Positions 10,646 through 32,031 of a stretch of DNA of 38,495 nt are shown in pieces. The stretch comes from Patescibacteria group bacterium (GTDB lineage Bacteria > Patescibacteriota > WWE3 > UBA101185 > UBA10185). The stretch spans positions 1-38,495 of the forward strand of contig BPJL01000010.1 of the NCBI GenBank assembly GCA_026004595.1. The letters are read 5' to 3'. The translations under genes and the position numbers were made by a program. Each line of letters begins with the position of its first letter. Positions within the stretch are counted from its first letter, which is position 1. Below the pieces are notes generated by a model. It was given only the letters and a program-made list of their open reading frames with translations, had not been told where the DNA came from and made no database searches.

Positions 10646-10977
10646 GAAATTCTTATGTTACGCCCTCTATAACCAAAATGCTTTACGGCTGGAGTAAGTG
10701 GGGGCGGGGCAACTTTGGCATTTTCAGGGAAATAACTGAAGAGTGGAATTGCCAGATTTGTGGGGAAAGACAAATAATAGGATTGCCACAATATTTTTTT
10801 CCAATGGACGACTCAAGAAGAGATTTTATTCGGGTGTGCCCATCTTGTTGGCACGATTTACGAGAGGCGGATATTCACACTTATGAGGAATTAGATAAAA
10901 AATTAGGCATTGAAAAATTTAAAGAGCAAATCAGACTCAAAATAATAGAGGTTAAGATGAAATTGAAAACCTCTTGA
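10642..10977 (+). CDS. Zn-ribbon hypothetical protein
   Basis: CQICG...CPSC; ATGA coupled. Confidence 0.65.
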   Translation: MRNSYVTPSITKMLYGWSKWGRGNFGIFREITEEWNCQICGERQIIGLPQYFFPMDDSRRDFIRVCPSCWHDLREADIHTYEELDKKLGIEKFKEQIRLKIIEVKMKLKTS

Positions 10978-10993
10978 AGGATTACTTTATAAT
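10963..10993 (+). promoter_or_regulatory. Late-class promoter 1 (portal)
   Basis: TTGAAAACCTCT, 19-bp spacer, TATAAT, 6 nt to ATG. Confidence 0.8.
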
Positions 10994-10999
10994 CTAGCT

Positions 11000-13026
11000 A
11001 TGAGTGATTTAATTGAGGAGCTAAATTCCCATTATCAAGACTGGAGTGAAGATATAACCCAACGCATCGAACGCAAACTTGGCTGGAAAGATGTTACCGA
11101 TACTTACTACGGTGTTCTTCCCGATGATTGGCCGTATGAGAGTCGTGTGGTTGACCCCAGAGTTAGAACCATCTTAATTGAAAAGAATTCAAGACTTACA
11201 GGGGGAAGAATAAGTGGCAGGGTTGTTCCAGTTGAGAATGCCGATGTTATCAAGGCTCGTATTCAACAAGCCTTACTTGAATATCAATGGAGAATGGCTG
11301 ATGAGGGAGGCTCAATGCAAACCAAACTTTCAATCTCTGATATGGATGCAAGACTTTACGGTTCAAAGTTTGTCCTGATTGAATGGAGGGTAAGGAAAGA
11401 TAAAGACGGTAAAGTTGTTTATGAAGGTAATGAATTCAAGCCTCTAGATATCAGAGACTGCGGGATTGACCCAACCGCCTCACACATAAGAGACGCTAAA
11501 TGGTTTCAACACAGGCAATGGGTTTATTTAGAAGACCTAAAGAAGGCAGTTGACGCTAAAGGCAAACCGCTTTTCAAGAATTTGGGCGAGATTGAAAAAA
11601 GACTTAAAGATAAAATCTCCGACACAAGGATTGAATACAACCCCAGAATACTTGAGATACAGGGGGCGAGAGGACAGAATGGGTAAGGATATTGCCTTCC
11701 CGATGATTAAGATTGTTACCGAGTATAGAAAAGATAGATGGATTACCTTTTCTCCGACTTATAAAGTAATTCTAAGAGACATAGCAAATCCCTATAATCA
11801 CGGCAAAATTCCAATTGCGCAACTTCGCTATCACGCCTTACAAGACGACCCGTTGGGCGAAAGTGAGGTAGAGCCAGTAATTATGCTTTGGAGAGCAATT
11901 CAAGCTGTCTTGTGTGGTTATATGGACGAAGTAGTCTTGAAGATGAATTCACCTCTTATTGCTGTTACTAATACCTATCGTCCTGAAACAATCAATTTTG
12001 CCCCTCGCGCTATCTGGGAGGTGGACAGACCTGATGCTATTACTCCTTTCAGGTTTGACGCAAACTCAATCCAATACTTTCAATCCACCTACCTTGCCCT
12101 AGTTTCAGCCCTTAATACGGCAATGGGAGCGATGAGTCAAGGAGTCTCAAACATTGACCCGACACAATATAAAAAGACTGCTACCGAGATTAGGACTTCT
12201 ATGAGGCAACAGACCCGCCGTTGACCAGAAGAACCTCACCGACTTAGGGGAGTTTTTACGAGATGTTATTTCAATGTGGATAGCTAATAATCAACAATTC
12301 CTCTTTTCAGACGAAAGCAAACATTACTTGATAGTTAAAGTAATAGGCAAGGATAATTGGGAATTCTTCAAGAAGGCGGGATTTGCGGACACCGATGTCC
12401 CAATTGAGGCACAGAAAATCATTGCTGATATTCTTATACAAAATCCCGACACAACAGAGGCTCAATTACAAGAGATGTTAGAAGCTGCCAAAATGCCAAA
12501 GAATGCCGTTGTTCTTAATCCTCGCGAGAAAAATCCACTTAAGTATAAGTTTGCACCAAAGCTCTCGTTGAAAGAGATGGGGGACGAGGGAGATTTATAC
12601 ATCACCAAAGAGGACATACAAGGACAATACGATTTTATTCCTGATATTAGGCTTATGACTATTACCGAAAGCGAAGAAAGACAAGCGGGAAGGCAAGCAG
12701 CTCTTCAAACTTTGACAACCAACCAATTAGTGCTACAATTATTACAAGATGAAGGTTATAAACCGAAAGTTAAAGAGCTTTTGGAAGCGACTCTTGAAGA
12801 CACAGGTCTTAAAGACCCTGAAAGGTTTTTTGAAAAGATAGAGAAAATAAATGAAAACATCCAAACGCAAAGAAATGCTTCAGGAACGCCTGAGGTTTTG
12901 GGAGGCACTATCCCGAATATCCAAAATGGAGGAGTGGCAACGCCACCTGAAGCCATACCTCCTCTCGAAAACCAACAACCAATGGCTACAGCCGGACAAA
13001 TTCAACAACCTCAAGGAATTTCATAA
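11000..13026 (+). CDS. Portal protein (P22/SU10-like); frameshifts near 11664 and 12221
   Basis: Three consecutive ORFs join by deleting single bases; NPYNHGKIP, PLGESEVEP and KTATE portal motifs; lies after terminase. Confidence 0.85.
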
Positions 13027-13156
13027 GGCATACGTTGAAGAATACGCTAGAGCTCTTGCCTCAAAGACTCTCGTAGATGAAATAGACAATGCCGACGAGA
13101 TGATTATTGAGATTAAAAAGCAGTTAGAGTTACCCGACAAATCTTATGGTATCTGA
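12851..13156 (+). CDS. Small helical protein following the portal
   Basis: 101-aa ORF overlapping the portal 3' end by 176 nt and coupled to the next gene. Confidence 0.65.
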   Translation: MKTSKRKEMLQERLRFWEALSRISKMEEWQRHLKPYLLSKTNNQWLQPDKFNNLKEFHKAYVEEYARALASKTLVDEIDNADEMIIEIKKQLELPDKSYGI

Positions 13157-13385
13157 TGAACCAATTAAAGGCGAAGATAAATTTATCTTTCATCACCACA
13201 AAGACAAATTAGAAGAAGATGTTGAAAAATTTGATGCAAAATCTTTTAAAACCGAAGTTAATTTCAAAAAGTGTGACCACTCCCAAGCCAAGTTTGTTAA
13301 TGGTGAAATAAGATGTGTCTGTGGTGCGGCCTGGAGAGGACCAAATTTGGCTATTCTATTTGACAATTTGACAAAGAAAAAATGA
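13146..13385 (+). CDS. Hypothetical protein (C-x-H...CxCG)
   Basis: 79-aa ORF in operon context. Confidence 0.6.
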   Translation: MVSDEPIKGEDKFIFHHHKDKLEEDVEKFDAKSFKTEVNFKKCDHSQAKFVNGEIRCVCGAAWRGPNLAILFDNLTKKK

Positions 13386-13396
13386 AGTGCTATATT
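13368..13396 (+). promoter_or_regulatory. Sigma70 promoter for scaffold gene
   Basis: TTGACA-17-TATATT with extended TG. Confidence 0.65.
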
Positions 13397-13407
13397 TTTA
13401 ACTAGCT

Positions 13408-14377: not shown

Positions 14378-14408
14378 TTGAAAACCTCTTATAACTTCTA
14401 GATAAAAT
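14378..14408 (+). promoter_or_regulatory. Late-class promoter 2 (major capsid)
   Basis: TTGAAAACCTCT, 19-bp spacer, TAAAAT. Confidence 0.75.
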
Positions 14409-14422: not shown

Positions 14423-14490
14423 GTAGTCTGATGCTCCGACTATAAACCGAGCACGATTTCTAAATCCTTGATGGGTTTAGAAAGGGGGTG
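14423..14490 (+). ncRNA. Structured 5' leader of capsid mRNA (H-type pseudoknot plus hairpin)
   Basis: TAGTC/GACTA stem; loop TGCTC pairs with GAGCA at 14449-14453; 11-bp hairpin 14457-14483 abuts the RBS. Confidence 0.45.
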
Positions 14491-14496
14491 ATTAAG

Positions 14497-15426
14497 ATGG
14501 CTTGGGGAAAAACAACTTATCAGGCACCAAACGAAATGAGAGAGTCCCTTTTAGATATTATCAGGGACATATCTCCTAATGAGGACAATTATTTTGTCTC
14601 AAACCTTGATAAGGGAGCTCCTGCTCTTCAAACCTATCACGAGTGGAATATCTTTCACGAGGATAGGGTGTCTTCTGTTACAGCAAACACTGAAGGAGCA
14701 GATACATCATATCCTGACCTTCAGGCTGAAAGCCGAGCTGGCAACTACACAGTTATTGTGGATTCTCCAGTCAAACTTTCAAGAACTAAAGCATCTATTG
14801 CGATGGTAACAAAGCAAGATGCTTTGGCTGTAGAGAAGGAAAGAGCCTTGAGGAGACTCAAGAACAAAATGGAGTTTCTTCTTATCAACGGCTCATTAGC
14901 AGCTGGTGCAACAAACTCCGCTCGTGGTATGGCGGGAATTGATGCCTTCATTACATCAAATGTTACCGCCTATTCCTCTGGACAATCATTCACAGAAGCA
15001 ATCTTGAATGATATGGCAAAGACAAGCTGGGACAATGTTGGTTCAAGCTATGTGGCTTCCACACTGGTTGCTCCTGCTGTTATTAAGCAAAGAGTAGCAA
15101 CCTTTGGAACCAACCTTACCCGCAATGTTAGAGCCGAAGACAAGAGGCTTATCAACGAGGTTCGTGTGTTTGACACCGACTTGGGTGTAACGGTTAAAAT
15201 CCTCGCTCACAAAGATGTCAGGAAAGCTGCAGGAACAGTTACAGCATTGCTCATTAACGAAGACCTGCACGAAATGTCCTTCTTGGTCAATACTGGTGAA
15301 CCTCACTGGGAAGACCGAGCAAAGGCTGGCGACTATGTGGCTGGGGTATATATTACCGAGTTCACTCACGTTGCGTATAACGAAAAGGCTGATGTAAAAC
15401 GTACCGGATTCTCGGCTTCGTTGTAG
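14497..15426 (+). CDS. Major capsid protein (SU10/DUF5309-like, HK97 fold)
   Basis: RESLLDII..ISP, HEW, NYT.I, RGMAGI motifs; about 309 aa; follows the scaffold; GGGGGTG RBS. Confidence 0.85.
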   Translation: MAWGKTTYQAPNEMRESLLDIIRDISPNEDNYFVSNLDKGAPALQTYHEWNIFHEDRVSSVTANTEGADTSYPDLQAESRAGNYTVIVDSPVKLSRTKASIAMVTKQDALAVEKERALRRLKNKMEFLLINGSLAAGATNSARGMAGIDAFITSNVTAYSSGQSFTEAILNDMAKTSWDNVGSSYVASTLVAPAVIKQRVATFGTNLTRNVRAEDKRLINEVRVFDTDLGVTVKILAHKDVRKAAGTVTALLINEDLHEMSFLVNTGEPHWEDRAKAGDYVAGVYITEFTHVAYNEKADVKRTGFSASL

Positions 15427-15491: not shown

Positions 15492-15516
15492 GACTAGAAG
15501 TGCTAAAATATGCTTG

Positions 15517-15912
15517 ATGGGAAAAATAAACCTTCAAGATTATGAAGTAATACCTCCTCACCTATCTACTCTTACCTCTTATATCACTAACCTTTGGGAA
15601 GGATTAGGAAGGCCTACCGATCCTCTGTCCTCTCAAGGACAAAAGCTTGTCAATTTTATTTTTGACGCCTACAAGGAACTTTACCCCGAAGAATACAAGG
15701 CTTGGCGGGAAATGATTAAAGAATATCAATCAGCCGAAAAATCAATTCACGAGCAAGTCAAGTACCACACAGGCAGAAGTCTTATATCATATCCCACGTG
15801 GGTTTATCATATCTTGCGAAAAGTCTTTCCAGGCTTTAACTTTCACAAACGAGAGAACGCAATGAAAATGGCAAAAACCTTTAGACAATTTCAGGTGGCA
15901 AATAAAGTATAG
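15517..15912 (+). CDS. Hypothetical protein
   Basis: 131 aa from ATG 15517, preceded by extended -10 TGcTAAAAT. Confidence 0.7.
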   Translation: MGKINLQDYEVIPPHLSTLTSYITNLWEGLGRPTDPLSSQGQKLVNFIFDAYKELYPEEYKAWREMIKEYQSAEKSIHEQVKYHTGRSLISYPTWVYHILRKVFPGFNFHKRENAMKMAKTFRQFQVANKV

Positions 15913-15924
15913 GAGGTGGTTAAT

Positions 15925-16056
15925 ATGTCCAAAATCTTATTTGTGTTAAATATTGTGCTTTTAATAGTCGTTTCTTTGTTGCTTGTTAAGGCTAGATGTC
16001 TAGAGAAGGAAGTAAAATCGGCTCAATGTATTCCCTGTCATATATGGTTAAGATAG
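15925..16056 (+). CDS. 43-aa single-pass membrane protein with CxxCH
   Basis: RBS AGGAGGTG; MSKILFVLNIVLLIVVSLLLVKARCLEKEVKSAQCIPCHIWLR*. Confidence 0.6.
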   Translation: MSKILFVLNIVLLIVVSLLLVKARCLEKEVKSAQCIPCHIWLR

Positions 16057-17807
16057 CTTTATCTATTATCACTAAAGGTGATGAGGAGTTAGACAACCTT
16101 AAAAAGTGTGTCGCCTCATTTTTGCCTGCTGTTGACGGGGTGTTTATTACCGCCAATGGTAAGAAGACAAAAGAGACCGAGAAGTGGTGTAAAGAAAATG
16201 GCTTTAATTACTCTTATCTTGCTTGGAACGATGATTTTTCAGCCCAAAGAAATTTTAACTTCTCACAGATTAAGGGATTTGACTGGATTTTGTGGGCGGA
16301 TAGTGACGATATTTTAGTCGGTGCAGACAAATTAAGAGATGTTGCTGATATTTCTTACAAGAACGGTTTTGATTGTGTTTTCTTTACCTATTATTACGGT
16401 TGTCTTTTTGATGGCGAACCCAGTTTTGAGAATATAAAACAAGTTGACTTAATCCAAAAGCGGGAAAGACTTTTAAAACCAGGTGTTTTTGTTTGGAAGG
16501 GAAGACTGCACGAAACACCAGTTCCTGTAAATAATTATCAGCCAAAATACACTTATGTCCCTTATTCTGAAGAATTCCCCATTGTCTGGGTGCACACCGA
16601 AGCTGATAGAAATCCCAATGCCCCTAAAAACATAGAACGAATGGAGAGAAATAAAAGAATTCTTGAGCTTCAGTTGAAAGAGGAAAGAGAAAAAGGAACA
16701 GCAGACCCACGAACCTTACTTTATCTGATGAAAATCTATGTAGAGCTTCCCGAACAGGAATTGTGGCAAAAATGTATTGAGATGGGGTATGAGTATTTAT
16801 CAAAATCGGGTTGGGACGAAGAGCGAGCCATCGCTTATCAGTTAATAAGCAAGTGTTATAGCCAGTTGGGAGACAACAGGAAAGCCGAAGAGGCAATAAG
16901 AAACGCCATCAAAGAATATCCTTACGAACCCTTGCTTTATCTTTACTTGGCAAAATACCTCTTTAATCAAAACAAATACAACGAGATGGAACACTGGCTT
17001 AAACTGGCGGTCTCAATGGAAGAGAAGGACACAACCCAAATGAATAATGAGATGGAAAAGAAAATCCTAGCCGCAGAACTCACTTTTAAGCTGGAATTTT
17101 ATGTTAAGCGAGATGTCAGAAAAGCATATCGGGCAATAAAATACCTCTACGATATAGCTCAAACCGAAGAGGCGTTGGTGCTCTTAAAAGAGGTTGAAAG
17201 ATTAAAAGAATTAGACGAGGCTTGTGAGGACACACACAAACTAATTAAATACTTTGAAAAAGAGGATAAAGAAGAAAGGGTTATCCCCTTAATTCAGTCT
17301 TTGCCTCTTGAAATCTCCAATCTTGAGTTTGCCTATCACTACTTTAACAAATACAAAAAACCAAGAGTTTGGAAGAAAAATGAGATTTGCTACTATGCTT
17401 ATCTTGGTCCGCACTTTGAGAAGTGGTCTCCTTTATCATTAAAAACAGGAATTGGCGGCTCTGAAACTGCGGTTATCAGACTTTCTCAAGAATGGGCAAA
17501 GAAAGGTTATACAGTAGTCGTCTATGCCGATGTCTTAAAAGAGGGCATTTATGATAATGTTATCTGGCTTCCTGCTTACAAGTTTAATCCTCGTGATAGA
17601 TTTAATGTCTTTATTCAATGGCGGTCTTCTTCTTTGGCAGGAAAAATCAAAGCCAAGAAGTTTTTAGTTGACTTGCACGACTTATATTCTCCGCAGGCTA
17701 TTGACTGGAATAAAATAGACTTTGCTATGGTTAAAAGTAAGTATCAAAGAAACCTAGCAAAAGATATTCCTGATAGTAAATTTAGGATAATTTCAAATGG
17801 CATATGA
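16044..17807 (+). CDS. GT2 glycosyltransferase + TPR repeats + N-terminal half of a GT4 (GT-B) domain
   Basis: WNDDFSAQRNF, WILWADSDD, WKGRLHE; TPR helices; GIGGSETAVI...ISNGI. Confidence 0.85.
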   Translation: MVKIALSIITKGDEELDNLKKCVASFLPAVDGVFITANGKKTKETEKWCKENGFNYSYLAWNDDFSAQRNFNFSQIKGFDWILWADSDDILVGADKLRDVADISYKNGFDCVFFTYYYGCLFDGEPSFENIKQVDLIQKRERLLKPGVFVWKGRLHETPVPVNNYQPKYTYVPYSEEFPIVWVHTEADRNPNAPKNIERMERNKRILELQLKEEREKGTADPRTLLYLMKIYVELPEQELWQKCIEMGYEYLSKSGWDEERAIAYQLISKCYSQLGDNRKAEEAIRNAIKEYPYEPLLYLYLAKYLFNQNKYNEMEHWLKLAVSMEEKDTTQMNNEMEKKILAAELTFKLEFYVKRDVRKAYRAIKYLYDIAQTEEALVLLKEVERLKELDEACEDTHKLIKYFEKEDKEERVIPLIQSLPLEISNLEFAYHYFNKYKKPRVWKKNEICYYAYLGPHFEKWSPLSLKTGIGGSETAVIRLSQEWAKKGYTVVVYADVLKEGIYDNVIWLPAYKFNPRDRFNVFIQWRSSSLAGKIKAKKFLVDLHDLYSPQAIDWNKIDFAMVKSKYQRNLAKDIPDSKFRIISNGI

Positions 17808-19360
17808 GAAGGCATAAACTATTTTGGGGTTCAAGTTATGATAGGGGTTTGCAATATCTCCTTTATATGTGGCCTGATATTAAAAAGGTGTATCCCGATG
17901 CAGAGCTTCATATCTGCTATGGTTGGCAAATTTTTGACAAGGTTGCGGCAAGTAATGTCGAGCGTCAGGAATGGAAACGAGGAATGGAGCTTTTAATGCA
18001 ACAAGATGGAATTTATCATCACGGAAGGGTGGGCAAGGAAGAATTAAAAAAAATTAGACAATCTTGCGGGATATGGGCTTATACTACTGATTTTTTGGAA
18101 ATAAATTGCATCACAGCTCTTGATTGTCAAAGGGACGGTTGTGTCCCCGTTACAATGTCTCTTGCCGCCCTCAAGGAAACTGTCGGGGCGGGAATTCTTA
18201 TTGATGGAGATATTAGAGACAAAAAGGTTCAGGAAAAATACCTCAAAGAGCTTCTTTCCTTAATGGGAGACGAAAAAAGATGGAAGGAATTATCCGAGAA
18301 AGGCAAAAGATTTGCAAGCAAGTTTTATTGGAACAAAATTGCCGATAAATGGATTGATGTTTTCAATGAGCCGATAGAAGATGTTAAAGTCTCAATCATA
18401 ACCCCCACCATAAGGGAGGGTTTTTGGGATAGTATGGCAAAAAACATTGCTTCGCAGACCTACAAAAACCTTGAGTGGATAATTGTTGATGACTATAAGG
18501 AGAACCGAGAAAAAATAGCCGAGAAATATGCCAAAAAGTATAGCCTTGATATTAAATACATCTGGGGCGATAAAGCTAAAGGAATTTACAAAAGAAGGTT
18601 GGGGCTTGTGAGGGCAAACAACCTTGCGTGGAAAGCCGCAACTGGCGAGCTTTTAGTTTGGCTTCAGGATTTTGTTTATATGGATGAAGACGCCATTGAA
18701 GCGTTAGTTGATTTATACCGCCATAATAAAGATTGTCTCATTGCACCAGTTGATATTTATTATGAGCCGATAAATGTTAACAAAAACAATAAAGAAGACT
18801 GGTTTAATGGACAAGATTATCAGGGGAAAAAGGTTTGGAAGAATGTCAGGGTGCAATATCACGGTATCAGAGAAAGCACAAATCCCTATGATTTTGAGTT
18901 AAATTTTGGAGCAATTCCTAAACATATTCTGGATAGGCTCAATGGGTTTTGGGAGTTTTTTGACGAAGGGCTGGGTTATGATAACACTGAAATTTGTCTA
19001 AGAGCGATGAAACTTGGTTATAGACTTTTAATAGACGATAGCATTATTGCTAAATGTCTTAATTTATGGCAGGTGATAAAAGGAAGCCCCCTTAATATAT
19101 CAGGACGTGATAGGCTTCTTAATCCACCACGTTATCTATGGATGATAAGACAAATAGAGAAGGGGAAATTACCGATTGTAAGAGATGAAAAAATAGATGA
19201 CAAAATCAATCTTTATTACGAAATTCCAAAAGAGATAAAAGACGAGGACTGTGCTAAATGGATTGAGAACCACTCGCAAGAGATAGTAAAATCTTGGGAG
19301 GAGGTGAAAAAATATGGCAAAAATGAAACCAAAAGGCAAAAGAGGCAGAGCAATGGTTAG
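17804..19360 (+). CDS. C-terminal half of a GT4 domain + GT2 glycosyltransferase
   Basis: SSYDRGL, EINCITALD...ALKETV; VSIITPT, EWIIVDD, WLQDF, GLGYDN. Confidence 0.85.
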   Translation: MRRHKLFWGSSYDRGLQYLLYMWPDIKKVYPDAELHICYGWQIFDKVAASNVERQEWKRGMELLMQQDGIYHHGRVGKEELKKIRQSCGIWAYTTDFLEINCITALDCQRDGCVPVTMSLAALKETVGAGILIDGDIRDKKVQEKYLKELLSLMGDEKRWKELSEKGKRFASKFYWNKIADKWIDVFNEPIEDVKVSIITPTIREGFWDSMAKNIASQTYKNLEWIIVDDYKENREKIAEKYAKKYSLDIKYIWGDKAKGIYKRRLGLVRANNLAWKAATGELLVWLQDFVYMDEDAIEALVDLYRHNKDCLIAPVDIYYEPINVNKNNKEDWFNGQDYQGKKVWKNVRVQYHGIRESTNPYDFELNFGAIPKHILDRLNGFWEFFDEGLGYDNTEICLRAMKLGYRLLIDDSIIAKCLNLWQVIKGSPLNISGRDRLLNPPRYLWMIRQIEKGKLPIVRDEKIDDKINLYYEIPKEIKDEDCAKWIENHSQEIVKSWEEVKKYGKNETKRQKRQSNG

Positions 19361-19502
19361 GAAACTGGGCAGAACTTACAAGACGGGTGGTTTTGCTAAA
19401 ATAGCTAGAAAAGCAGCCAAAAAATATGGTTCTATTGCTGTTGGTCGTCGTGTAGCTGGAGCGATTTTCCAAAGAATGGTAAGAGCTAGAAAGAGGGGGT
19501 GA
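19314..19502 (+). CDS. Very basic 62-aa protein
   Basis: RBS GGAGGTG; K/R/G/A-rich with no acidic residues. Confidence 0.7.
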   Translation: MAKMKPKGKRGRAMVRKLGRTYKTGGFAKIARKAAKKYGSIAVGRRVAGAIFQRMVRARKRG

Positions 19503-19506
19503 GACT

Positions 19507-19620
19507 ATGCCGTTTCACAGTCTAAAGCAACGCACTTGGATGAAAATCAACAAACCCGAAATATACAGGCGGTGGAAAAAGAAGTATGGAACGAAAATTC
19601 GCAGGGTGGGTAAAAAATAA
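19507..19620 (+). CDS. Basic 37-aa protein
   Basis: RBS GGGGGTG; MPFHSLKQRTWMKINKPEIYRRWKKKYGTKIRRVGKK* (not in ORF track). Confidence 0.65.
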   Translation: MPFHSLKQRTWMKINKPEIYRRWKKKYGTKIRRVGKK

Positions 19621-20107
19621 ACTAAAAAGGGGAATACTACTTGATATAGGAAGTGGCAACCCAGCATCAGGCGAAAATCAGCCACAAGGCTATGTGCTTC
19701 AGGATATTGAACCCTATCAAAATATAGATTTAGTATGTGATATAAGGGATTTGCCTAAATATATTCCCGATGGTTATTGTTCGGTTATAAGAGCCAGCCA
19801 CGTTTTGGAACACTTTGGAACGAAAGAAACACAAGAAGTGATAAAAATGATTTATAGATTACTTGAGAAGGGGGGCAAATTTATAATCTTTGTTCCTAAT
19901 TTTAGATGGCACGCCCAACTTGTAGCTCAGGGACAAGATGAGATGGCGGTTCACTATGCTTTTGGCGGGCAATTAGACGAATGGGATTATCACAAAACTG
20001 GTTATACTCCTAAAATACTAAGAAAATATCTAGAACAAGCGGGATTTGAGATTTTAACTTTAGACGAAGCAAGCAGTATTGAATGCCACGCAATTAAAAA
20101 TTATTAA
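19586..20107 (+). CDS. Class I SAM-dependent methyltransferase
   Basis: LDIGSG, ASHVLEHF, RLLEKGGKFIIFVPN. Confidence 0.85.
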   Translation: MERKFAGWVKNKLKRGILLDIGSGNPASGENQPQGYVLQDIEPYQNIDLVCDIRDLPKYIPDGYCSVIRASHVLEHFGTKETQEVIKMIYRLLEKGGKFIIFVPNFRWHAQLVAQGQDEMAVHYAFGGQLDEWDYHKTGYTPKILRKYLEQAGFEILTLDEASSIECHAIKNY

Positions 20108-20110: not shown

Positions 20111-20141
20111 TTGAAAACCTCTCAATCTTCTACTTTATAAT
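20111..20141 (+). promoter_or_regulatory. Late-class promoter 3
   Basis: TTGAAAACCTCT, 19-bp spacer, TATAAT, 8 nt to ATG. Confidence 0.8.
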
Positions 20142-22726: not shown

Positions 22727-22757
22727 TTGCAAACCTCTGATGGCTATTTTTTATAAT
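22727..22757 (+). promoter_or_regulatory. Late-class promoter 4
   Basis: TTGCAAACCTCT, 19-bp spacer, TATAAT. Confidence 0.8.
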
Positions 22758-22767: not shown

Positions 22768-23895
22768 ATGGCACTAATATATGGTTCATCTCTAACAGAC
22801 CCACGCGCTGCTAATTATGGGGGTTCGTATCTGGCTCCCATGTCAAGCGATACTAATCCCTATGCCGCAAACTATCAAGGGAGGATGGCTCTCCCACCTG
22901 CTCTACGATCAAGTGTTCGGGTAGCCACGAGTCCTTCTCAAGTCGGGCAGCCGATTGGTTCTGTTTTGGGCACCTCAACGAGTAGTGGTGGAACAGGCGG
23001 TGGCTCACAACCCGTTCAACAGGAGCAACCACAGGAAGACCCGCAAGAAAGAATTAGGCGTGAGGTTGAAGCAATCTATTCTCCTTTAATGAATTATCTT
23101 AATCAGGCAGAAAGTGCGGTAACTAGCGAATATCAACGCTATGTTCCCGAACTTGAACAGCAATACGCAACCTCTCTTTCAAACATTCAAAATCAAAAAA
23201 CACAGGGCGAAAGAGAATTGGCCTCTCAAGAACAAGCGGCAGGGGTGAGAAGAGAAGACGCCTTGTCTGCCGCGAGGAGACTTTATGATGAATTAAGGCG
23301 TGGTGGTCTTCAAAGATTTGGTGGTGCTTCTTCAGCAGGACAGGCCTTTACCGAGTTAACCGCCCAAGAACAGCAAAGGCAGTCGGGTAATATTTGGCAG
23401 GTTTATCAGCAAACGCTTGATAATCTTAATAAATATAGAGCTAATCTTTTAGATAATTTTGCTCAAGCTCAAAAAGAGTTGGAACTAGCAAAAACTTCTG
23501 CTTTACAACAGGCATACGACAACTATCAAAACAGACTTAATGAAATCAGAGCTAAGAAAGGAGAAACAGAAAGTCTTAAGGCAAAAGCACTTTATGACGA
23601 GCTCCAAAATTTAAGAAATCAGGTTTATCAGATTAATCTCCAATCTCTCAATCTTGCTCAACAGCTAGCTTATAATAAACAGATGGCATTAAGCACGGTT
23701 GACCAGTATTCACAAAAAGTAGCTCAAAGCATACTTGGTGGCTCAACCTCTTATCAGAACTTGGTCAACGCCACCACAACCAGACCAGTAAGTAATTTAA
23801 CAGTTGGTGGACAGCCTACCACAACCACAACACAAACTGGAGTTATCCAACCCACATACAGAAGACCTGAAGAATACTTGAATTATCTGTATTAA
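22768..23895 (+). CDS. Putative ejection/internal virion protein
   Basis: Gln/Ala-rich coiled coil after tail genes. Confidence 0.55.
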   Translation: MALIYGSSLTDPRAANYGGSYLAPMSSDTNPYAANYQGRMALPPALRSSVRVATSPSQVGQPIGSVLGTSTSSGGTGGGSQPVQQEQPQEDPQERIRREVEAIYSPLMNYLNQAESAVTSEYQRYVPELEQQYATSLSNIQNQKTQGERELASQEQAAGVRREDALSAARRLYDELRRGGLQRFGGASSAGQAFTELTAQEQQRQSGNIWQVYQQTLDNLNKYRANLLDNFAQAQKELELAKTSALQQAYDNYQNRLNEIRAKKGETESLKAKALYDELQNLRNQVYQINLQSLNLAQQLAYNKQMALSTVDQYSQKVAQSILGGSTSYQNLVNATTTRPVSNLTVGGQPTTTTTQTGVIQPTYRRPEEYLNYLY

Positions 23896-23904: not shown

Positions 23905-23935
23905 TTGAAAACCCCGCTTAATTTTGGTCTATAAT
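23905..23935 (+). promoter_or_regulatory. Late-class promoter 5
   Basis: TTGAAAACCCCG, 19-bp spacer, TATAAT, 8 nt to ATG. Confidence 0.8.
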
Positions 23936-23943: not shown

Positions 23944-26900
23944 ATGGACTTAATATCTTCTGTTGTTAATAAAGTCAAAGAGGTCGCAAGAAATATGGGT
24001 AAAAAGGTTAGCGACGATGAAGGATTTATCCGTCAGGGACAATTTACTCCTGTTCAGGCTGTAAGAGATTACTTTAATCCTACTTATAATCAAGGACAAA
24101 ATTTTTGGAGCACGCCAGCGGCACAAGGTTTGGCTAGTTTACAGACTACTTTAGAAAAATCAAGATATGAAATGCCAAAGGTTAGCCTAGAAAGTGTTAC
24201 TCCACAAATTAAAACTCCTTATAAACCAGTAAATTTGGTTGCTAATTTACCCATAAATTTAGCAAGAGGCATAGCTGAAGGAATTATCAATGCTCCAGTA
24301 AATGCTTGGCAAACTGTAGCGAGGATTGGTTATGATATTGTTAATGTTCCTCGTGGAGAAGTTAAATTAACGCCGCAAAGAGTTTTGTCTGATATTGCTC
24401 CTGGACTTGAAGCATATTTATCTGTCGCTGGTTTGGGATTGGGAAAACAAGTAATTAAAGAGGCAGGAAAAGAACTAGCTAAAGGGTCTGTTAAGCAGGC
24501 AATTAAGAAAGGAGCATTAGAGGGATTTTTATATGGTGGAGGATTTGGCTTAGCGGAAGCGGCTTCCTCTAAAGAATTTGCCGAAAAACAAAATGTTGGT
24601 TCGTTGGTAGAACCGACTTTAACTGGGGCGGCAGGAGGAGCGTTGATTGGGGCAGCAGCAAGAGGTGTGCCAGCGGCAATAGGAGCACTCTTTAATAAAG
24701 TAAAATCAGCAATAAGGGAAATTCACCCCAACCAACCCCCTGAATGGGTAGACAAGCAAGGAAGAACCTTTGTTAGAAATGAACTAGGAAGATTTGTCGG
24801 TCTTAAGCCGTTAGTTAAAGAGGAAAAAATTCCAATTAAACAAGGTGAAAAAATTATTGGTTATATTACTAGAAAAAGAGTTTATCCATCCGGGAAAGAA
24901 CCTCGTTGGTATGGGGATGTAAGAGAAAAAATTGGATTGCCAAGAGAAGGATTAACTTCAGAAAACATCCCTTTTGGGTTATCGGTTAAAACAACAAAAG
25001 ATGAGAATGTTAGGATGGTATCACAAGCAGTCAAACAAGGTCATATTACCGCAGAGGAAGGACAGGCAATTTTGGAAGAGTTAACAAAGCAGGGTGGAAA
25101 GATTAAACTAAAAGGCTCTGTAGAACCACAACCTATGGCAGAGGGCAGTCAAATCGGCATACCTCAATCTTCGCAAAAAATAGAAGGTAAATTACCGAAA
25201 GAAGAACTACAAACCAATATACCTTCACAGACCAATGCATATACTAACATTGTATCAAACAAAGTCAAAAACGGAGAACCGCCGACCGCTGATGAGGTTG
25301 GAAAGAGTATAGAGGAAAGATTAAACGCCTTTACCGAGAAGGTTTTAGGCTACAATCCTCAAGATATTCAGGGCGGGCAAAAAGGAGCATCTTTCTTTAC
25401 AAGGACTTTGCGAAAAGGACAGGAAGCGGTGTCAACCACAGTTGAAAAAGGATTGGCAAGTCAATTTACACCAGTTAGGCTTGCTTCACAACTTCTAGAA
25501 GGATTTTTCAGGGGCATAGGTATGTCGCCCGAAAGAGCACAGGCATCAGCGACCCTCAGGGGGGGTATTAACTTGGCTCAAGAAAGAAGTTTCAATATAG
25601 GACAGGCATTATACGATTTACTTGGAGAAGACCGAAAATCTCTCGCAAGAATAAATGCGGTTCTTGACCCAGAATTGGCAAAAACTAAAATATCTTTTAA
25701 TGATTTAACACCAAAAGAAAAACAAGTTTATAATCTTATACGGGAAGGGTTAGATTTGGTTCACGATATCTCATATGCCAACGGGTTTTTATCTCCTGAA
25801 AAATATTTAGCTAATAAAGGAAAATACACTCCCCGCCTTTATGAACCAATGGAGCTGCCACCAGAGGTTAATGAATTTGTTAAACAGGCCTCAAAGAAAC
25901 TAAACTTTGATATTTTTAAGAAAAGGAAAGATGTTGACGCATGGAAGATAGAAAACTCACTTAATAATCCTATTTATGGACTTGCCAAAAGACTGTCGCA
26001 GGTTCAGATGAATATGGAGGTTAAGAAATATACTGATTTTCTTGCATCAAATAGTCGGTATGTATCAGACACCCCCAAAGCAGGATTTGTTAAATTATCA
26101 GAAAGTCCTGTATATGGCAAATTAAGCGGGAAATATGTCTTAAATAGTGCCGCAGAGGACTTAAAAGGATTTTTCTTCTCAAACGAATTGACACAGAAGT
26201 TATATGATGTTTTTAGGGTTTATGATAGATTACCCGTTAGACAGCTCCAGAAAAAACTATTAACCGTGTTTAATCCAACCACTAATGTCGGTAATATAGT
26301 GTCAGATAATGTCTTTGGTTTTCTAACTGGAGTTGACCCATTGACTCTTAATAAAAACATTCTTGAATTGAAGAAAAATCCGCAAGAATATAGAAAACTT
26401 GTTGATTATCTGATGAGTAAAAATGTCATTGGAACGGATATAACAAGGACAGACTTTGTCAGTCAGCTTGCCAAAGTAGATGAGCTTGCAAATATCGGAG
26501 CTAAACAGAAACTAAAAGGTGTTGCTTCTAAAGTAGAGAAATTTTATGGCGGAACAGATGATATCTATAAAACAGCGGCTTTCAAAGCCCTTCTTGATAA
26601 AGGATATTCTCTTGAGGAAGCGACAAGACTGGTAGCTGATGGATTTCAGAATTACGCAAATGTCGGCAAATTCTATGATTTATGGGCAAAAACACCTATT
26701 ATTGGAGAACCTTTTATTAAGTTTCAGGGCGATTTAATAAGAATAATTAAGAATGCTGCAGTTAATAGACCCCTTCATTTAATAACCTTTTTGGCTACAC
26801 TAAAAGGCATTGCTTATCTATTTAGCAAACTTTCAGGAGAAAGCGAGCAGGACAGAATAACAAGAGAGCAGAGATATGCCGCACCATATATTCCCGGACT

Positions 26901-28179
26901 TAATATACCCCTAACTTGGCAAACTCCGTTGGGTGAAATAAATGTTGCTCGTTATATGTCGCCAACCTTTGCTAACCGCGATACTTCAACCCTTGTTGGT
27001 AAAATGTTGCCTTTTACGCCAGAAATGAGTAAATATGGAAAAGACAACGCCACCTTTATAGCTCAAAATATCAGCGACCCATTAGTTGCTCCTTTAGTTC
27101 AGGGGTTGGTGTTAAACAGAGACTTTAGAGGAAAACCGATAGCAGATGTTAACGAAACTAAATATAAACCATCAACGCTTACACCAGAAGAAAAACTTGT
27201 AAATACTGCTACTTTTATAGCAAGGGGTTACACGCCGCCGCCAATAAATAGTGCTATTGATGTTGTAAGAGCTTTTCAAGGAAAACCTAATATGTATGGA
27301 GCCAAACAGACACCCGCTCAAGCAATGGCAAGATTGTTTGGTATTAAAATTCAGAAGTTTGGGCCAGAAGAAGCACAACAACAAAGGGAGAAGGATTTGG
27401 AATTTTCAGCCCAACATAACGAATTTATTGATAGGCAAATAGACTCGGTTTATAAGCAATTATTAAATAAAGAAATTACCCAAGAGCAGGCAGATAAAAG
27501 AATAGCAAACCTTGAGAAGCAGAAAAAATCGCTCCCCAATGTTCCCCAAAGTGGAGATAAAATAAGACTACTTGATAAAGACGGAAAATTAAAAACAATT
27601 GATTTGCTTGACATTACTCCGCTTGAGACAGACACCAACTATCAAAAAGCCTTAAAGCAGAAAAAAGCCTTCTCTTATGTAGATGATATTTTAGACAGCG
27701 AGATGCCGGTTGACGAGAAGGGACAGGCACTAGCCAAACTTGGAATAGACCCCGAAGATGCTGCTTACTACAATGTCGCAAGACAAGATAACGATATTAA
27801 AGATATTTATGTCAGAGACGAAATAGCTAAATATGGCGACAACAGGCAAGAGATGCTTTTGGGACTTGTCAAACTAAGAAGAGAAGTAAACGGAAAGATG
27901 ATTTTGGCTGATAAGGTAATAACCTCTTTATATGAGGATGGTATCATTAGTTATGATGAGGCAAAATGGCTCAAAAATGCCAAATATACAAAGGATGGAC
28001 AAGTTAGGGTAAAATTATCAGGAAGGGGAAAATCGGCAAAGCTCAAATCTGTTACTTATAGAGCTAAAAAGCTGTCTTATAAAGTCCCGAAGTTAAAGGC
28101 TATCAAAGTTGGCGGGGTTAGAAAAGGAATATCGGGAAGGGGTAGAATATTCAAAACCAGAAAAGTAACTTTTAAGTAA
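23944..28179 (+). CDS. Large ejection/DNA-transfer protein
   Basis: 1411 aa, Gly/Ala-rich hydrophobic helices, helical core, very basic C-terminal tail. Confidence 0.65.
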   Translation: MDLISSVVNKVKEVARNMGKKVSDDEGFIRQGQFTPVQAVRDYFNPTYNQGQNFWSTPAAQGLASLQTTLEKSRYEMPKVSLESVTPQIKTPYKPVNLVANLPINLARGIAEGIINAPVNAWQTVARIGYDIVNVPRGEVKLTPQRVLSDIAPGLEAYLSVAGLGLGKQVIKEAGKELAKGSVKQAIKKGALEGFLYGGGFGLAEAASSKEFAEKQNVGSLVEPTLTGAAGGALIGAAARGVPAAIGALFNKVKSAIREIHPNQPPEWVDKQGRTFVRNELGRFVGLKPLVKEEKIPIKQGEKIIGYITRKRVYPSGKEPRWYGDVREKIGLPREGLTSENIPFGLSVKTTKDENVRMVSQAVKQGHITAEEGQAILEELTKQGGKIKLKGSVEPQPMAEGSQIGIPQSSQKIEGKLPKEELQTNIPSQTNAYTNIVSNKVKNGEPPTADEVGKSIEERLNAFTEKVLGYNPQDIQGGQKGASFFTRTLRKGQEAVSTTVEKGLASQFTPVRLASQLLEGFFRGIGMSPERAQASATLRGGINLAQERSFNIGQALYDLLGEDRKSLARINAVLDPELAKTKISFNDLTPKEKQVYNLIREGLDLVHDISYANGFLSPEKYLANKGKYTPRLYEPMELPPEVNEFVKQASKKLNFDIFKKRKDVDAWKIENSLNNPIYGLAKRLSQVQMNMEVKKYTDFLASNSRYVSDTPKAGFVKLSESPVYGKLSGKYVLNSAAEDLKGFFFSNELTQKLYDVFRVYDRLPVRQLQKKLLTVFNPTTNVGNIVSDNVFGFLTGVDPLTLNKNILELKKNPQEYRKLVDYLMSKNVIGTDITRTDFVSQLAKVDELANIGAKQKLKGVASKVEKFYGGTDDIYKTAAFKALLDKGYSLEEATRLVADGFQNYANVGKFYDLWAKTPIIGEPFIKFQGDLIRIIKNAAVNRPLHLITFLATLKGIAYLFSKLSGESEQDRITREQRYAAPYIPGLNIPLTWQTPLGEINVARYMSPTFANRDTSTLVGKMLPFTPEMSKYGKDNATFIAQNISDPLVAPLVQGLVLNRDFRGKPIADVNETKYKPSTLTPEEKLVNTATFIARGYTPPPINSAIDVVRAFQGKPNMYGAKQTPAQAMARLFGIKIQKFGPEEAQQQREKDLEFSAQHNEFIDRQIDSVYKQLLNKEITQEQADKRIANLEKQKKSLPNVPQSGDKIRLLDKDGKLKTIDLLDITPLETDTNYQKALKQKKAFSYVDDILDSEMPVDEKGQALAKLGIDPEDAAYYNVARQDNDIKDIYVRDEIAKYGDNRQEMLLGLVKLRREVNGKMILADKVITSLYEDGIISYDEAKWLKNAKYTKDGQVRVKLSGRGKSAKLKSVTYRAKKLSYKVPKLKAIKVGGVRKGISGRGRIFKTRKVTFK

Positions 28180-28884: not shown

Positions 28885-28888
28885 AATC

Positions 28889-28919
28889 TTGCAAACCCCC
28901 TTGGGGGCAATAATATAAT
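28889..28919 (+). promoter_or_regulatory. Late-class promoter 6
   Basis: TTGCAAACCCCC, 19-bp spacer, TATAAT. Confidence 0.8.
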
Positions 28920-28940: not shown

Positions 28941-29498
28941 ATGGCAACCTTTACTTGGACTGCACAATTAACGACAGGAACGCTCACAATCGGAGCAACC
29001 GACAAGGTTGGTTTCTATGGCACAAACTTTGGAGACGCCATTACTGTCAATTCTTATCAAGACTCAACTCATATTGAAAATTCCTCTGGAACGCACCTCT
29101 GCACAACCAACCACGTTAACAACACCAAATACCTAACCTCAACCACCGTTTCCATCAATGGTGGTGGTTCTCAAACTCTTGGTGCATCAGTTCCAACCAC
29201 AGCACAATGTCCTTTAAAAATCAACTTTTCTCATACTTCGGCTGTTGCTACCTCTGCTGGCAAATTTTGGGCTGACAATGGAAGCGATGTAAATACCGCA
29301 CCTACTGATGTAACATTTCAGGCAGGGGAACAGTCGGATACAAGCTGGACAGCCGCCGCACCCAAAAGTGCTGCTGTCACTCTCACAGATCAAGCATCGG
29401 CAACATCACACGACTTTTACATCTTTTGCTCGGCATCCCCGACAGCAGTTGGTGACAAAACAGCATTTAGATTGGGAATTGAGTTGACCTACCAGTAA
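28941..29498 (+). CDS. Thr/Ser-rich beta structural protein
   Basis: 185 aa, composition typical of a decoration/fibre protein. Confidence 0.65.
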   Translation: MATFTWTAQLTTGTLTIGATDKVGFYGTNFGDAITVNSYQDSTHIENSSGTHLCTTNHVNNTKYLTSTTVSINGGGSQTLGASVPTTAQCPLKINFSHTSAVATSAGKFWADNGSDVNTAPTDVTFQAGEQSDTSWTAAAPKSAAVTLTDQASATSHDFYIFCSASPTAVGDKTAFRLGIELTYQ

Positions 29499-29499
29499 T

Positions 29500-29703: not shown

Positions 29704-29719
29704 TCTTGGTGATGAACCA

Positions 29720-30166
29720 ATGAAAAAAGTTGTGAGCCGATGGCTCGCTTCGCTTAGCGACGGAAGCGTTGCCATTGAAGGCAAACCACCATTTGAAGAA
29801 ATTCCTAACGAACCCTCGCCTTGGCAGAGGCTTCTCCTTCATTTAGCCAAAAACAAACTTGAAATTACAGGACTTCGCATTCAAATTGAGAAGGAGGGAG
29901 AACCCGTGAGAACCTTTAATCTCCCTTCAAAGTCTCCTAAACAGAAATGGGCTGACTTAAAACCTCTAATTCCCGTCGGATTTAATTACTTCAGGCGTAT
30001 TCAAAGAAGTATGGAGCCAATAGAGGGTGATTTTGGTAATTTGAGGCTTGGAAACGAATATCATTTTATTGAAATTCACGCAATTTATAACGACTTTGAA
30101 TTAGTCTTAATAGTAGACGAGGATACAGGTAACGAAACATGGGCTTTTATATTGCCTAAAAACTAG
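29720..30166 (+). CDS. Hypothetical protein
   Basis: 148-aa ORF in operon. Confidence 0.7.
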   Translation: MKKVVSRWLASLSDGSVAIEGKPPFEEIPNEPSPWQRLLLHLAKNKLEITGLRIQIEKEGEPVRTFNLPSKSPKQKWADLKPLIPVGFNYFRRIQRSMEPIEGDFGNLRLGNEYHFIEIHAIYNDFELVLIVDEDTGNETWAFILPKN

Positions 30167-30199
30167 TGTAAACGTTCACTATGACAATACAATATAACT

Positions 30200-30412
30200 A
30201 TGGCGACACTAGGAGTAACAACTATTGGCTCGCTAACGCAAAGTACCAACAATGCGCTTATTATGAGCAAGGCTACGGCCGGCGAGAGCTTTACGGCCGT
30301 AGATATGTATGTCTACATTGACCCTAATAGCCCCTCGAGTACCGCACTATCAGTATCTATATTTAGCGACAATGCCTGGACCGACGACGGTGAAATAAGA
30401 TTACAGGGCTAA
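30200..30412 (+). CDS. Short structural-type protein, possibly a deletion remnant
   Basis: MATLGVTTIGS... start typical of longer fibre-associated proteins; only 70 aa. Confidence 0.5.
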   Translation: MATLGVTTIGSLTQSTNNALIMSKATAGESFTAVDMYVYIDPNSPSSTALSVSIFSDNAWTDDGEIRLQG

Positions 30413-30413
30413 T

Positions 30414-31988
30414 ATGGCAATAAGTTATAACTCAAAATCAGTAAGCAATACTAATTCCAGTTCGTTTAGCCATACACTTCAGGCAGGGGAAAACATTGTA
30501 GGAATAGTAGCGGTTGTATTGCGCGACGGTACGGATAGCGTAAGCGGTATTACATGGGGCGGCCAAGCAATGACCAGAACGCGTACTAAGGTTACTGGTA
30601 ATGGACTAGGCATAGAGGTATTTCATATAATAAATCCACCCTCGGGAACGCAAACTATATCAGTTAGCGGAACATTAAACGGCGATTATAAGTGTTATTC
30701 GGCCGCATTTAATGGCCTAAATCAAACTACACAGCCGGACGTAACAGCTACAGCAACCGGTGTTAGTAGCTCGGCTTCGGTAGATATCACACCAACGGCC
30801 GCAAATAGTGCAATTTTTGGAGTAGTAGCTACAGAGGACGGTAGCGCACCCACTACCGGTTCGGGTGAGATTTCATTATATAACCACGATAACGGTACTT
30901 GGGCTTCGGGTTCAAGTTGGGTAAATAAAGCAGGCACTACGGCACATACCGTAAATTGGAGTATTGGTAATGAGACTTGGATAGTTTTAGCAGTAGCGCT
31001 AGGTGAAGCGACGACAGGAACGGAAACTAGCGACACCAGAAACGCAAAAATACACGGTAAAGCTACTACGAGTGATAGCCGGGGCGGCAGAATAAAGGGT
31101 AAAGCTACTACTACAGATACTAGAAACGCCATAACTAAAGGTATAACAACAGTAATAACATCAGATACAAGAGGAGCAAGAACCAAAGGACAGGAAACTT
31201 TAACAGACAATCGTTCTACAAGAACGAAAGGCGTAGCAACTACTTCCGATACAAGGAGTGCTAGAATAAAAGGGCTTCTTACTACTTCGGATACTAGAAG
31301 TGCAAGGACGAAGGGTGTTGCCACCGCCTCAGATACAAGGAATGCAAGGGTTAAGGGTTATCTTGCTACATCGGATACTAGGAATGCCCGCACAAAGGGA
31401 ATGGCTACTATCTCCGACACTCGTGGGGCTAGAACGAAAGGAATTTCAACAACTTCTGATACGAGGAATGCCAGAACGAAAGGTGTGGCTACTACTTCCG
31501 ATACAAGAGACGCCCGTGTTAAAGGGCAGATAACCACATCGGACACAAGGAACGCAAGAACTAAGGGTCAGGCGATAACATCAGATACAAGAGCGGCTAA
31601 AACTAAAGGAGTTAGTATTAGCGTAATTTCAGACAACAGAGATGCACGCATAAAAGGCTTGGATACTTTATCCGACAATCGGGGTGCGAGAACTAAAGGA
31701 TTTGATATTGCCGGAGAAACTAGAAACGCAAGAACTAAAGGTTATCTTACAACTTCAAACACAAGAGACGCTAGGATAAAAGGTGAATTAACCGCATTAG
31801 ATTTTAGAGATGCATACATTAAGGGAAGTGCAACAACCTCAGACACAAGGGGGGCAAGGTTAATTGGAGCAATAGCAAGTTATAGAAACGCAAAAGTAAA
31901 AGGGCCGGAACCCAATTATCCTAAATTTATCTTTGTGGATGGAGAACTGGCAATTCATCTTTTTGGCAAGTTTTATATGAAAGTATGA
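30414..31988 (+). CDS. Fibre protein: N-terminal beta domain plus 14-aa repeat shaft
   Basis: About 200-aa beta-sandwich-like head followed by about 21 TTSDTRxARxKG repeats. Confidence 0.75.
   Translation: MAISYNSKSVSNTNSSSFSHTLQAGENIVGIVAVVLRDGTDSVSGITWGGQAMTRTRTKVTGNGLGIEVFHIINPPSGTQTISVSGTLNGDYKCYSAAFNGLNQTTQPDVTATATGVSSSASVDITPTAANSAIFGVVATEDGSAPTTGSGEISLYNHDNGTWASGSSWVNKAGTTAHTVNWSIGNETWIVLAVALGEATTGTETSDTRNAKIHGKATTSDSRGGRIKGKATTTDTRNAITKGITTVITSDTRGARTKGQETLTDNRSTRTKGVATTSDTRSARIKGLLTTSDTRSARTKGVATASDTRNARVKGYLATSDTRNARTKGMATISDTRGARTKGISTTSDTRNARTKGVATTSDTRDARVKGQITTSDTRNARTKGQAITSDTRAAKTKGVSISVISDNRDARIKGLDTLSDNRGARTKGFDIAGETRNARTKGYLTTSNTRDARIKGELTALDFRDAYIKGSATTSDTRGARLIGAIASYRNAKVKGPEPNYPKFIFVDGELAIHLFGKFYMKV
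31023..31903 (+). repeat. Degenerate 42-bp coding tandem repeat (about 21 units)
   Basis: Protein consensus TTSDTRNARTKGxx; codons highly diverged between units. Confidence 0.9.
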
Positions 31989-32000
31989 AAGTTTGAATTC

Positions 32001-32031
32001 TTGAAAACCCGCCTACTTACTCTTCTATAAT
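32001..32031 (+). promoter_or_regulatory. Late-class promoter 7
   Basis: TTGAAAACCCGC, 19-bp spacer, TATAAT, 8 nt to ATG 32040. Confidence 0.8.

Follow-up and report, generated by a model that had tools for sequence, protein, structure and literature searches.

Predicted box promoters on a phage contig

The stretch of DNA considered here, called the window below, is the entire contig BPJL01000010.1 (C10; 38,495 nucleotides (nt)) from the assembly GCA_026004595.1 of a Patescibacteria group bacterium, and the element in question is a 9-base-pair (bp) box, TTG(A/C)AAACC, that recurs at a set distance upstream of a -10 hexamer of the sigma-70 type and ahead of virion genes. The genome consists of 18 contigs and 1,038,159 bases, 16 of these contigs being host and two, C10 and C9, phage. 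Judged by its genes C10 is a podovirus-like phage with an SU10-type capsid, binned with a Patescibacteria genome of ~1 Mb. The major capsid protein (PF17236, E 1.8e-49) and the adaptor (PF24175, E 1.2e-7) are both of SU10 type and the fibre gene matches phrog_9017 (E 4.4e-10), with further recognised genes for the small and large terminase, an M23 peptidase, a NinG/Rap-like nuclease, a replication initiator and a cytosine methylase. The names portal, ejection protein and decoration-like protein are assigned from position and size only, these genes matching 0 PHROGs families and no Pfam family above cut-off, and the Pfam rows returned for 22768-23895 and 23944-28179 lie below cut-off, at chance level only.

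The predicted box promoters of the window are as follows:

10963..10993, + strand: box promoter 1, TTGAAAACCT, 19-bp spacer, TATAAT; ATG at 11000, 6 nt on; portal-position gene
14378..14408, + strand: box promoter 2, -10 TAAAAT; ~88-nt leader, then the capsid gene with ATG at 14497
20111..20141, + strand: box promoter 3; SU10-type adaptor gene, ATG at 20150, 8 nt past the -10
22727..22757, + strand: box promoter 4; 375-aa gene, ATG at 22768
23905..23935, + strand: box promoter 5; 1411-aa gene, ATG at 23944
28889..28919, + strand: box promoter 6; 185-aa gene, ATG at 28941, Shine-Dalgarno-like leader
32001..32031, + strand: box promoter 7; tail-fibre gene, ATG at 32040
19263..19292, + strand: box promoter 8 (variant), TTGAGAACC, 18-bp spacer, TAAAAT

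The longer form of the box, TTGMAAACCY, occurs eight times in the window (seven on the + strand and once on the - strand at 17845) against 0.97 expected, and none of 100 shuffles reaches eight, whilst the composite TTGMAA-N19-TAWAAT occurs seven times against 0.18 expected, with seven again reached by 0/100 shuffles. All seven + strand copies (10963, 14378, 20111, 22727, 23905, 28889 and 32001) have the 19-bp spacer; these are the sites that a preliminary description of the sequence had named, each found where it was placed, and as it had said the -10 is TAAAAT once, at 14378, and TATAAT six times. In all seven the -10 hexamer has A at position 2 and T at position 6, and at none is there the TG extension of an extended -10 promoter. 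They do not conform to TTGACA at 17 +/- 1 bp, the hexamer being TTGMAA and the spacer 19 bp in 7/7. The ATG lies 6-10 nt past the hexamer at five of the seven, the other two having leaders with a Shine-Dalgarno-like sequence. The variant site at 19263 was found by a weight-matrix scan and is followed by a Shine-Dalgarno sequence and a small open reading frame (ORF) at 19314-19502; its counterpart in the relative G002 is a canonical box.

When the seven sites are aligned the invariant columns are confined to the box, the -10 hexamer and four scattered positions, and no column of the spacer is invariant save for the T directly before the -10. An inverted repeat of at least 4 bp is found in only one of the seven spacers (28889), which bears out the earlier observation that the spacers share no dyad, and the spacer sequence itself is not conserved. 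It had further been held that every site stands before a virion gene; for the capsid, adaptor and fibre genes this is upheld by family match, and for the portal, ejection and decoration-like genes it is a matter of position or size only. The RNA runs consulted were available as assembled contigs. One such contig, from an RNA library of a relative, spans 14428-15215 only and is a weak hint for promoter 2 that cannot show a transcription start, and a second, labelled 'RNA?', begins within the box at 14383 and likewise shows no transcription start.

The other promoters that can be predicted in the window are ordinary ones, of the form TTGACA-16/17, as the preliminary description had it, or TGnTAnAAT:

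6667..6695, + strand: early promoter, TTGACA-17-TATGAT; ATG at 6702, 6 nt on
696-723, + strand: TTGACA-16/17 promoter
4040-4013, - strand: TTGACA-16/17 promoter
2731-2703, - strand: TTGACA-17-TATCAT, upstream of the MerR-like ORF described below
13368-13396, + strand: TTGACA-17 with TG, upstream of the scaffold-position gene
37600-37627, + strand: TTGACA-16/17 promoter
8816..8824, + strand: extended -10 of host type, TGCTATAAT, before terS with ATG at 8834
15501-15509, + strand: extended -10 of host type, TGCTAAAAT, before a 131-aa gene
4042-4050, + strand: extended -10, TGnTAnAAT

Host promoters and the box in related phages

A view of the promoters used by the host can be gained from its own contigs, all counts here being for every contig except C9 and C10. 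Upstream of the host tRNA genes there is a recurrent element, TGnTATAAT, near the gene. The hexamer TAnnnT stands exactly 6 nt before 95 of 1517 start-proximal ATGs (6.3%) and before 1.2% of internal ATGs, a 5-fold difference, and it follows that leaderless mRNAs are probably common in the host. In those 95 sites T-15 reaches 0.59 and G-14 0.52, with a weak -35 region (T-35 0.55), and of the 59 sites that have no TG 14 have a TTG beginning at -35, which gives a 17-bp spacer, three have it at -36 and one at -37. The host thus seems to rely on extended -10 promoters, whose -35 is weak and placed at 17 bp, and to make many leaderless mRNAs. Its primary sigma factor (sigma-A, C1:67920-69173) has a standard region 4.2 helix, hence TTGACA-17 should be the optimum for this sigma. 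The best match to this protein, at 88% identity, is in a metagenome-assembled genome (MAG) of candidate division WWE3, followed by MAGs labelled Candidatus Saccharibacteria at 66-68%. The bin holds a second primary-type sigma gene at C16:686-1804, the two proteins being 51% identical with identical region 4.2 helices; C16 also carries a duplicate tRNA-Asn and may come from another organism.

The box architecture is missing from these host contigs. The composite motif is found seven times in the whole genome, every time on C10 (reversed control 0), and thus 0 times on the 16 host contigs, and across 60 related host genomes its 21 occurrences are matched by 22 of the reversed control, which is chance level. 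Most host contigs have the box by itself at a density of 0.2-0.9 per 10 kb, compared with 2.3 on C10 and 1.6 on C9, and none of the copies on host contigs has a suitable -10. In a weight-matrix scan the 13 sites of C10 and C9 take the top 13 ranks (scores 19.9-30.5), with 19.5 for the best host match, and of 107 host promoter-like TTG[AC][ACT]A sites none continues with ACC. With no composite on host contigs, no TG at the seven window sites and chance level in the related genomes, the box sites stand apart from the housekeeping promoter of the host, as had been proposed. The region upstream of the host 16S gene does contain one TTGACAACC, and no box lies in the ~250 bases upstream of the host extracytoplasmic function (ECF) sigma gene on C5. 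A single host site that resembles the phage architecture was found, at C6:5755-5796 before a response-regulator gene, and consists of TTGAACACC, which has one mismatch to the box, an 18-bp spacer, TAGTAT, 6 nt and the ATG.

The box is by contrast widespread amongst relatives of the phage. A profile search gave 61 loci, and the tally across the family was made on 63 related phage sequences (1.28 Mb) with the box taken as TTGMAAACC or TTGATAACC. The gene strand carries 172 copies and the opposite strand 22, and of 161 distinct gene-strand contexts 130 have an nAnnnT -10 at a spacer of 17-20 bp. The spacer is 18 bp in 76 of these 130 sites, 19 bp in 49, 17 bp in three and 20 bp in two, and in 28 of 37 sources its length does not vary. 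Only 4/130 have a TG extension. The ATG is 5-10 nt past the -10 in 95 of the 130, most often at 6 nt (50 sites), and as it is usually so close most transcripts are predicted to be leaderless. The variant TTGATAACC belongs to the L091/L109/L094 clade and a looser TTGnnAAsCG is found in G005; AAACC is retained across phages with capsid proteins 40-97% identical, the exact box fading under ~50% capsid identity. In ten IMG/VR loci found by capsid protein the box is likewise retained on the gene strand, and relatives that do not have the 49 bp upstream still carry the box directly after the stop codon.

C9 (38,621 bases; loci L072 and L073), a further phage of the family in the same bin, is heavily frameshifted, with structural proteins 38-81% identical to those of C10, and has six boxes, each with an 18-bp spacer, a -10 of cAyAAT and the ATG 6 nt on. 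G001 has the same seven promoters as C10. The promoters of non-virion genes were examined in C10, C9 and G001, and the same split into two classes is found in C9 and G001 as in the window. The TTGACA-16/17-TAnnAT promoters of the non-virion genes mostly have the ATG 6-7 nt on, and would hence give leaderless transcripts too, and one of those in C9 has an 18-bp spacer.

Candidate factors and other features of the contig

Four genes of the window are of concern as candidates for a phage protein that would read the box:

37331..37613, + strand: sigma-region-4-like ORF, +1 frameshift near 37458
2373..2636, - strand: MerR/HTH_17-like ORF, in-frame TGA at 2538-2540
10642..10977, + strand: gp111, a four-cysteine zinc-ribbon protein present in 12/13 near-full relatives; its 3' end contains box promoter 1
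15517..15912, + strand: gp131, a conserved helical protein present in 13/13 genomes, with its own host-type promoter in this clade

The preliminary description had put forward the sigma-region-4-like protein and the MerR-like helix-turn-helix (HTH) protein as late factors, and neither has fared well. The former is split between two ORFs that differ in frame, and a 93-aa product that matches Sigma70_r4_2 (PF08281, E 7.7e-6; 25.9 bits, cut-off 25.7) is given only by reading through the +1 frameshift, its matches to ECF sigma factors being below threshold, whilst the two pieces alone give E 0.092 and no match. It has no counterpart in relatives: a search of five with the protein gave no match, as did one of C9, PF08281 is above cut-off in 0/15 related records, and BLASTP gives no alignment of the product with the Mor-like protein of C9. 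The MerR-like ORF is interrupted by the in-frame TGA and has sub-threshold HTH scores only, the N-terminal 32 aa reaching E 0.027 with MerR_1.

Other recognisable regulators are scattered. Sigma region 2 (PF04542, E <= 1) has four matches in the genome, none of them on C10 or C9. Mor-like proteins (PF08765) are above cut-off in only two of 16 records, C9 and G007, and not in C10, HTH_17 proteins are found in G001, G002 and G005, and G006, which is 95% complete, has no region-4-like, Mor-like or HTH_17 protein. What the 13 near-full genomes do share in a BLAST pan-genome is limited to virion and packaging genes, glycosyltransferases, gp111 and gp131. A hidden Markov model of gp111 matches in 42/61 loci, mostly those with a capsid at least 46% identical, and one gp111 relative carries the name of a CPR3 bacterium. 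The protein has no Pfam or NCBIfam family, Foldseek against the PDB gives nothing at E <= 0.001 and a protein atlas gives only unnamed clusters, the structure model itself being weak (mean predicted local distance difference test (pLDDT) 64.8). The model of gp131 is good (pLDDT 82.4), and for its fold Foldseek finds nothing, VIA-align wide gives a best Z of 4.0 and the atlas has no usable match. No DNA-binding fold was detected in either.

Several genes of the contig are split by frameshifts:

9174-10645: large terminase
11000-13026: portal-position gene
1419-2220: cytosine methylase
37331-37613: region-4-like ORF

The contigs of relatives have one base fewer at 11662 and at 12214, and for this reason the splits are probably indel errors of the assembly; the host ECF sigma gene at C5:59000-59540 is split by a frameshift in the same way. 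The standard genetic code is the best fit for C10, and alternative codes (table 25, TAG=Q) leave its split genes unmended. An ORF at 3-122 (+ strand) is open at the start of the contig and closes with a match to the C-terminal half of HTH_17 (E 0.005). As the contig opens inside this ORF, C10 is not a closed genome and a regulator gene appears to be cut by the contig end. A nucleotide search of the phage collection with the window gave no match, and an Rfam scan of the window gave nothing at gathering score.

Within the structural module, behind a host-type promoter, lies a region at 15517-20107 that holds the 131-aa gene, two large glycosyltransferase genes, one of them with tetratricopeptide (TPR) repeats, and a methyltransferase gene, and in the matching region relatives carry extra glycosyltransferase and epimerase-like genes. 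The glycosyltransferase genes in this module may serve in glycosylation of the virion. The ORF at 33639-34343 has a concanavalin-A-like lectin domain (Laminin_G_3, E 1.8e-17) and a weaker match to a Pfam family named for the clostridial neurotoxin receptor-binding domain (E 1.3e-5), and probably encodes a receptor-binding tail protein.

The 5' leader of the capsid gene contains a conserved leader RNA at 14425-14458, with a hairpin in which AGTC (14425-14428) pairs with GACT (14438-14441) around a near-invariant loop, UGAUGCUCC here. On its 3' side are an A-rich stretch (AUAAAC here) and then an invariant GAGCA, which could pair with the loop as a pseudoknot, this second helix being invariant. 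For the hairpin, there are compensatory changes in all four stem pairs across 21 distinct phage leaders, with 97.9% of cells paired and a covariation score that is reached by 0/500 shuffles. The leader belongs to no Rfam family, the rows returned being at chance level only, and in some relatives it sits before the scaffold-position gene instead.

How the box promoters may work

The box sites are taken as real promoters because the arrangement of hexamer, 6-8 nt and ATG is that of host leaderless genes, and because of their strand bias and conservation. On this sequence evidence the data support the view that they are a promoter class of their own, found ahead of virion genes alone and unlike the host-type promoters. 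In such a promoter region 2 of the primary sigma of the host would read the -10 hexamer (nAnnnT), this being of sigma-70 type, and transcription would begin at the ATG or a few bases before it, so leaving most late mRNAs leaderless. The 9-bp box, which is specific to the phage family, would stand in for the -35 element, with its TTG 18 or 19 bp from the -10, where host and early phage promoters usually have 16-17 bp, and without the TG extension, which appears to be the element that host promoters depend on most. As the spacing is wrong and the TG is missing, box promoters would probably be poor ones unaided. A factor made by the phage might then read the box, including the ACC that is found in no host promoter, and hold or replace region 4 of sigma, with late timing as the result. 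The argument for a factor is that the box is phage-specific, continues three bases beyond a -35 hexamer, lies 1-2 bp beyond the host optimum and is not accompanied by TG. That these sites are a late promoter class which needs a phage factor is our best reading, held to be about as likely as not, an estimate that takes in the two candidates of the preliminary description as well as gp111 and gp131.

Several findings weigh against a phage factor. There is no DNA-binding protein common to all box-bearing phages in the pan-genome of 13 near-full genomes; the small HTH proteins vary by phage and the region-4-like ORF is in C10 only. The locus L079 (IMG/VR, 20,574 bases, 62% capsid identity) keeps both gp111 and gp131 and yet the 17 kb of its late region are free of the box, the genes there following Shine-Dalgarno-like sequences. 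The host, moreover, is probably a patescibacterium by binning alone; one capsid relative is on a contig of a Saccharibacteria-labelled MAG. The main rival is that the host sigma-A holoenzyme suffices, using TTGMAA as a -35 at a long spacer, with strength or timing set by DNA topology, template copy number or competition. The chief argument for it is the want of any shared regulator, the late promoters being conserved and the early regions mosaic, and it is helped by the box starting with TTG in every clade and so resembling a -35 hexamer, by the -10 that keeps A at position 2 and T at position 6, by the standard region 4.2 of the host sigma-A and by the single TTGACAACC ahead of the host 16S gene. 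It is harder to see why sigma-A alone should keep AAACC over capsid identities of 40-97% when no host promoter-like site has ACC, or why a spacer of 17 bp, at which the host TTG peaks, should be found in 3/130 sites only. For their non-virion genes these phages have TTGACA-16/17 promoters, with one 18-bp spacer in C9, and the TG on which the host relies is missing from the box promoters. Sigma-A acting alone is a possible explanation that we hold to be the less likely.

It might be assumed that a factor, if there is one, would be the region-4-like protein or the MerR-like HTH protein. The read-through product of the former does match Sigma70_r4_2, the box contains AAC, which is the core of ECF-type -35 elements, and TTGACA-17-TATCAT lies upstream of the MerR-like ORF. 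However, G001 has the same seven promoters and no region-4-like gene, an ORF that is also frameshifted in the assembly and missing from C9 and five relatives, and an MerR-like protein is at odds with the in-frame TGA, the sub-threshold HTH matches, the want of a spacer dyad and the 18-bp spacers of most relatives, so that either as the late factor is improbable. Within the reading that calls for a phage factor, gp111 or gp131 could read the box or reposition sigma region 4. Both are near-universal in the near-full genomes and without a known family or fold match, and in the window they lie behind the host-type promoters TGCTATAAT (8816) and TGCTAAAAT (15501), gp131 being behind a host-type promoter in 8/12 other genomes as well, and could for that reason be made before the box promoters fire. 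Set against this are L079, which keeps both and has no box, the TTGATAACC clade, in which gp131 is itself behind a box promoter, the failure to detect a DNA-binding fold together with the weak model of gp111, and a position in the packaging and head module that would suit a role in assembly. It is thus rather unlikely that one of these small proteins, having no relatives of known fold, is a new kind of specificity factor for late promoters, one that would read TTG(A/C)AAACC and hold host sigma region 4 one or two bp further upstream. The box might also be no part of a promoter and instead be a repressor operator, or a signal at the level of DNA or RNA unrelated to initiation, for which its being longer than a -35 hexamer could be cited. 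This is very improbable, as the box is at a fixed distance to an nAnnnT hexamer and ATG in 95/130 sites, the arrangement of hexamer, 6 nt and ATG also marks host leaderless genes, the strand bias is 172 to 22 and relatives without the 49 bp upstream retain the box right after a stop codon.

Comparison with known systems gives partial parallels to the box promoters. MerR-type promoters have a 19-bp spacer with the operator dyad inside it. The seven window sites have the same spacer length; unlike MerR-type promoters, only one of their spacers has an inverted repeat and there is no conservation of the spacer sequence, the length in most relatives is 18 bp and not 19, and no intact MerR-family protein is present. 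The classical MerR mechanism is thus disfavoured, as the preliminary description had already held.

A closer parallel is offered by the middle promoters of T4, where transcription by way of MotA and AsiA is described as 'sigma appropriation' (PMC2988021, PMC6755090). As these sources describe them, T4 middle promoters likewise combine a -10 of sigma-70 type with a phage-specific, asymmetric box of ~9-10 bp that replaces the -35, and like the box promoters they are present in many copies that serve one temporal class of genes, the early promoters being host-like. The MotA box is 12 +/- 1 bp from the -10 (PMC2988021), whereas the box here ends 15-16 bp from it and retains TTG, and TGn, which is found in roughly half of the middle promoters of T4, is present here in only the 4/130 noted above. 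The factors of T4 are known; Pfam scans of 106 ORF entries (42 + 20 + 44) found no family named for MotA or AsiA, although small divergent proteins can escape such scans.

The phages phiEco32 and 7-11 are also podoviruses with a related SU10-type capsid module, and according to PMC8948821 they have a phage-specific late promoter consensus before their late blocks, with early promoters read by host sigma-70. Their late promoters are read by a phage sigma, and the consensus sequences given in that source are tAATGTAtA and GTAAtg-16-aCTA (PMC8948821). The differences are that the sigma of those phages has region 2, for which there are 0 matches to PF04542 on C10 or C9, and that the consensus is another one, the -10 here being of the ordinary sigma-70 type.

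The C protein of phage Mu binds as a dimer. The late promoters of Mu, which depend on C as the middle promoter does on Mor, are described as having suboptimal elements, with Pmom 'out of phase', and a 'C dimer' is named in a figure legend of the same source (PMC4461284). The activator site there overlaps or abuts the -35 (PMC4461284), as does the position of the box, and a further likeness to Mu is that C9, from the same bin, and G007 encode Mor-family HTH proteins. The box differs in that it has no dyad, there is no Mor-family match in the window and Mor-like proteins are in 2/16 records.

Almost nothing is known of how Patescibacteria, members of the candidate phyla radiation (CPR), and their phages begin transcription, and a literature search turned up no paper on initiation in either among the matches listed. 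The present analysis provides a picture that can be tested, of a host that appears to have extended -10 promoters and many leaderless mRNAs and of a phage family that appears to have a second, conserved class of promoters for its virion genes. The motif is also a practical marker, by which late operons and their precise start codons can be annotated in over 40 sequences of uncultivated phages. Should the promoters depend on a factor, it is not among the usual recognisable regulators, and this would be a new way of redirecting host RNA polymerase; were gp111 or gp131 to be that factor, phages of the CPR would remodel sigma in a new way.

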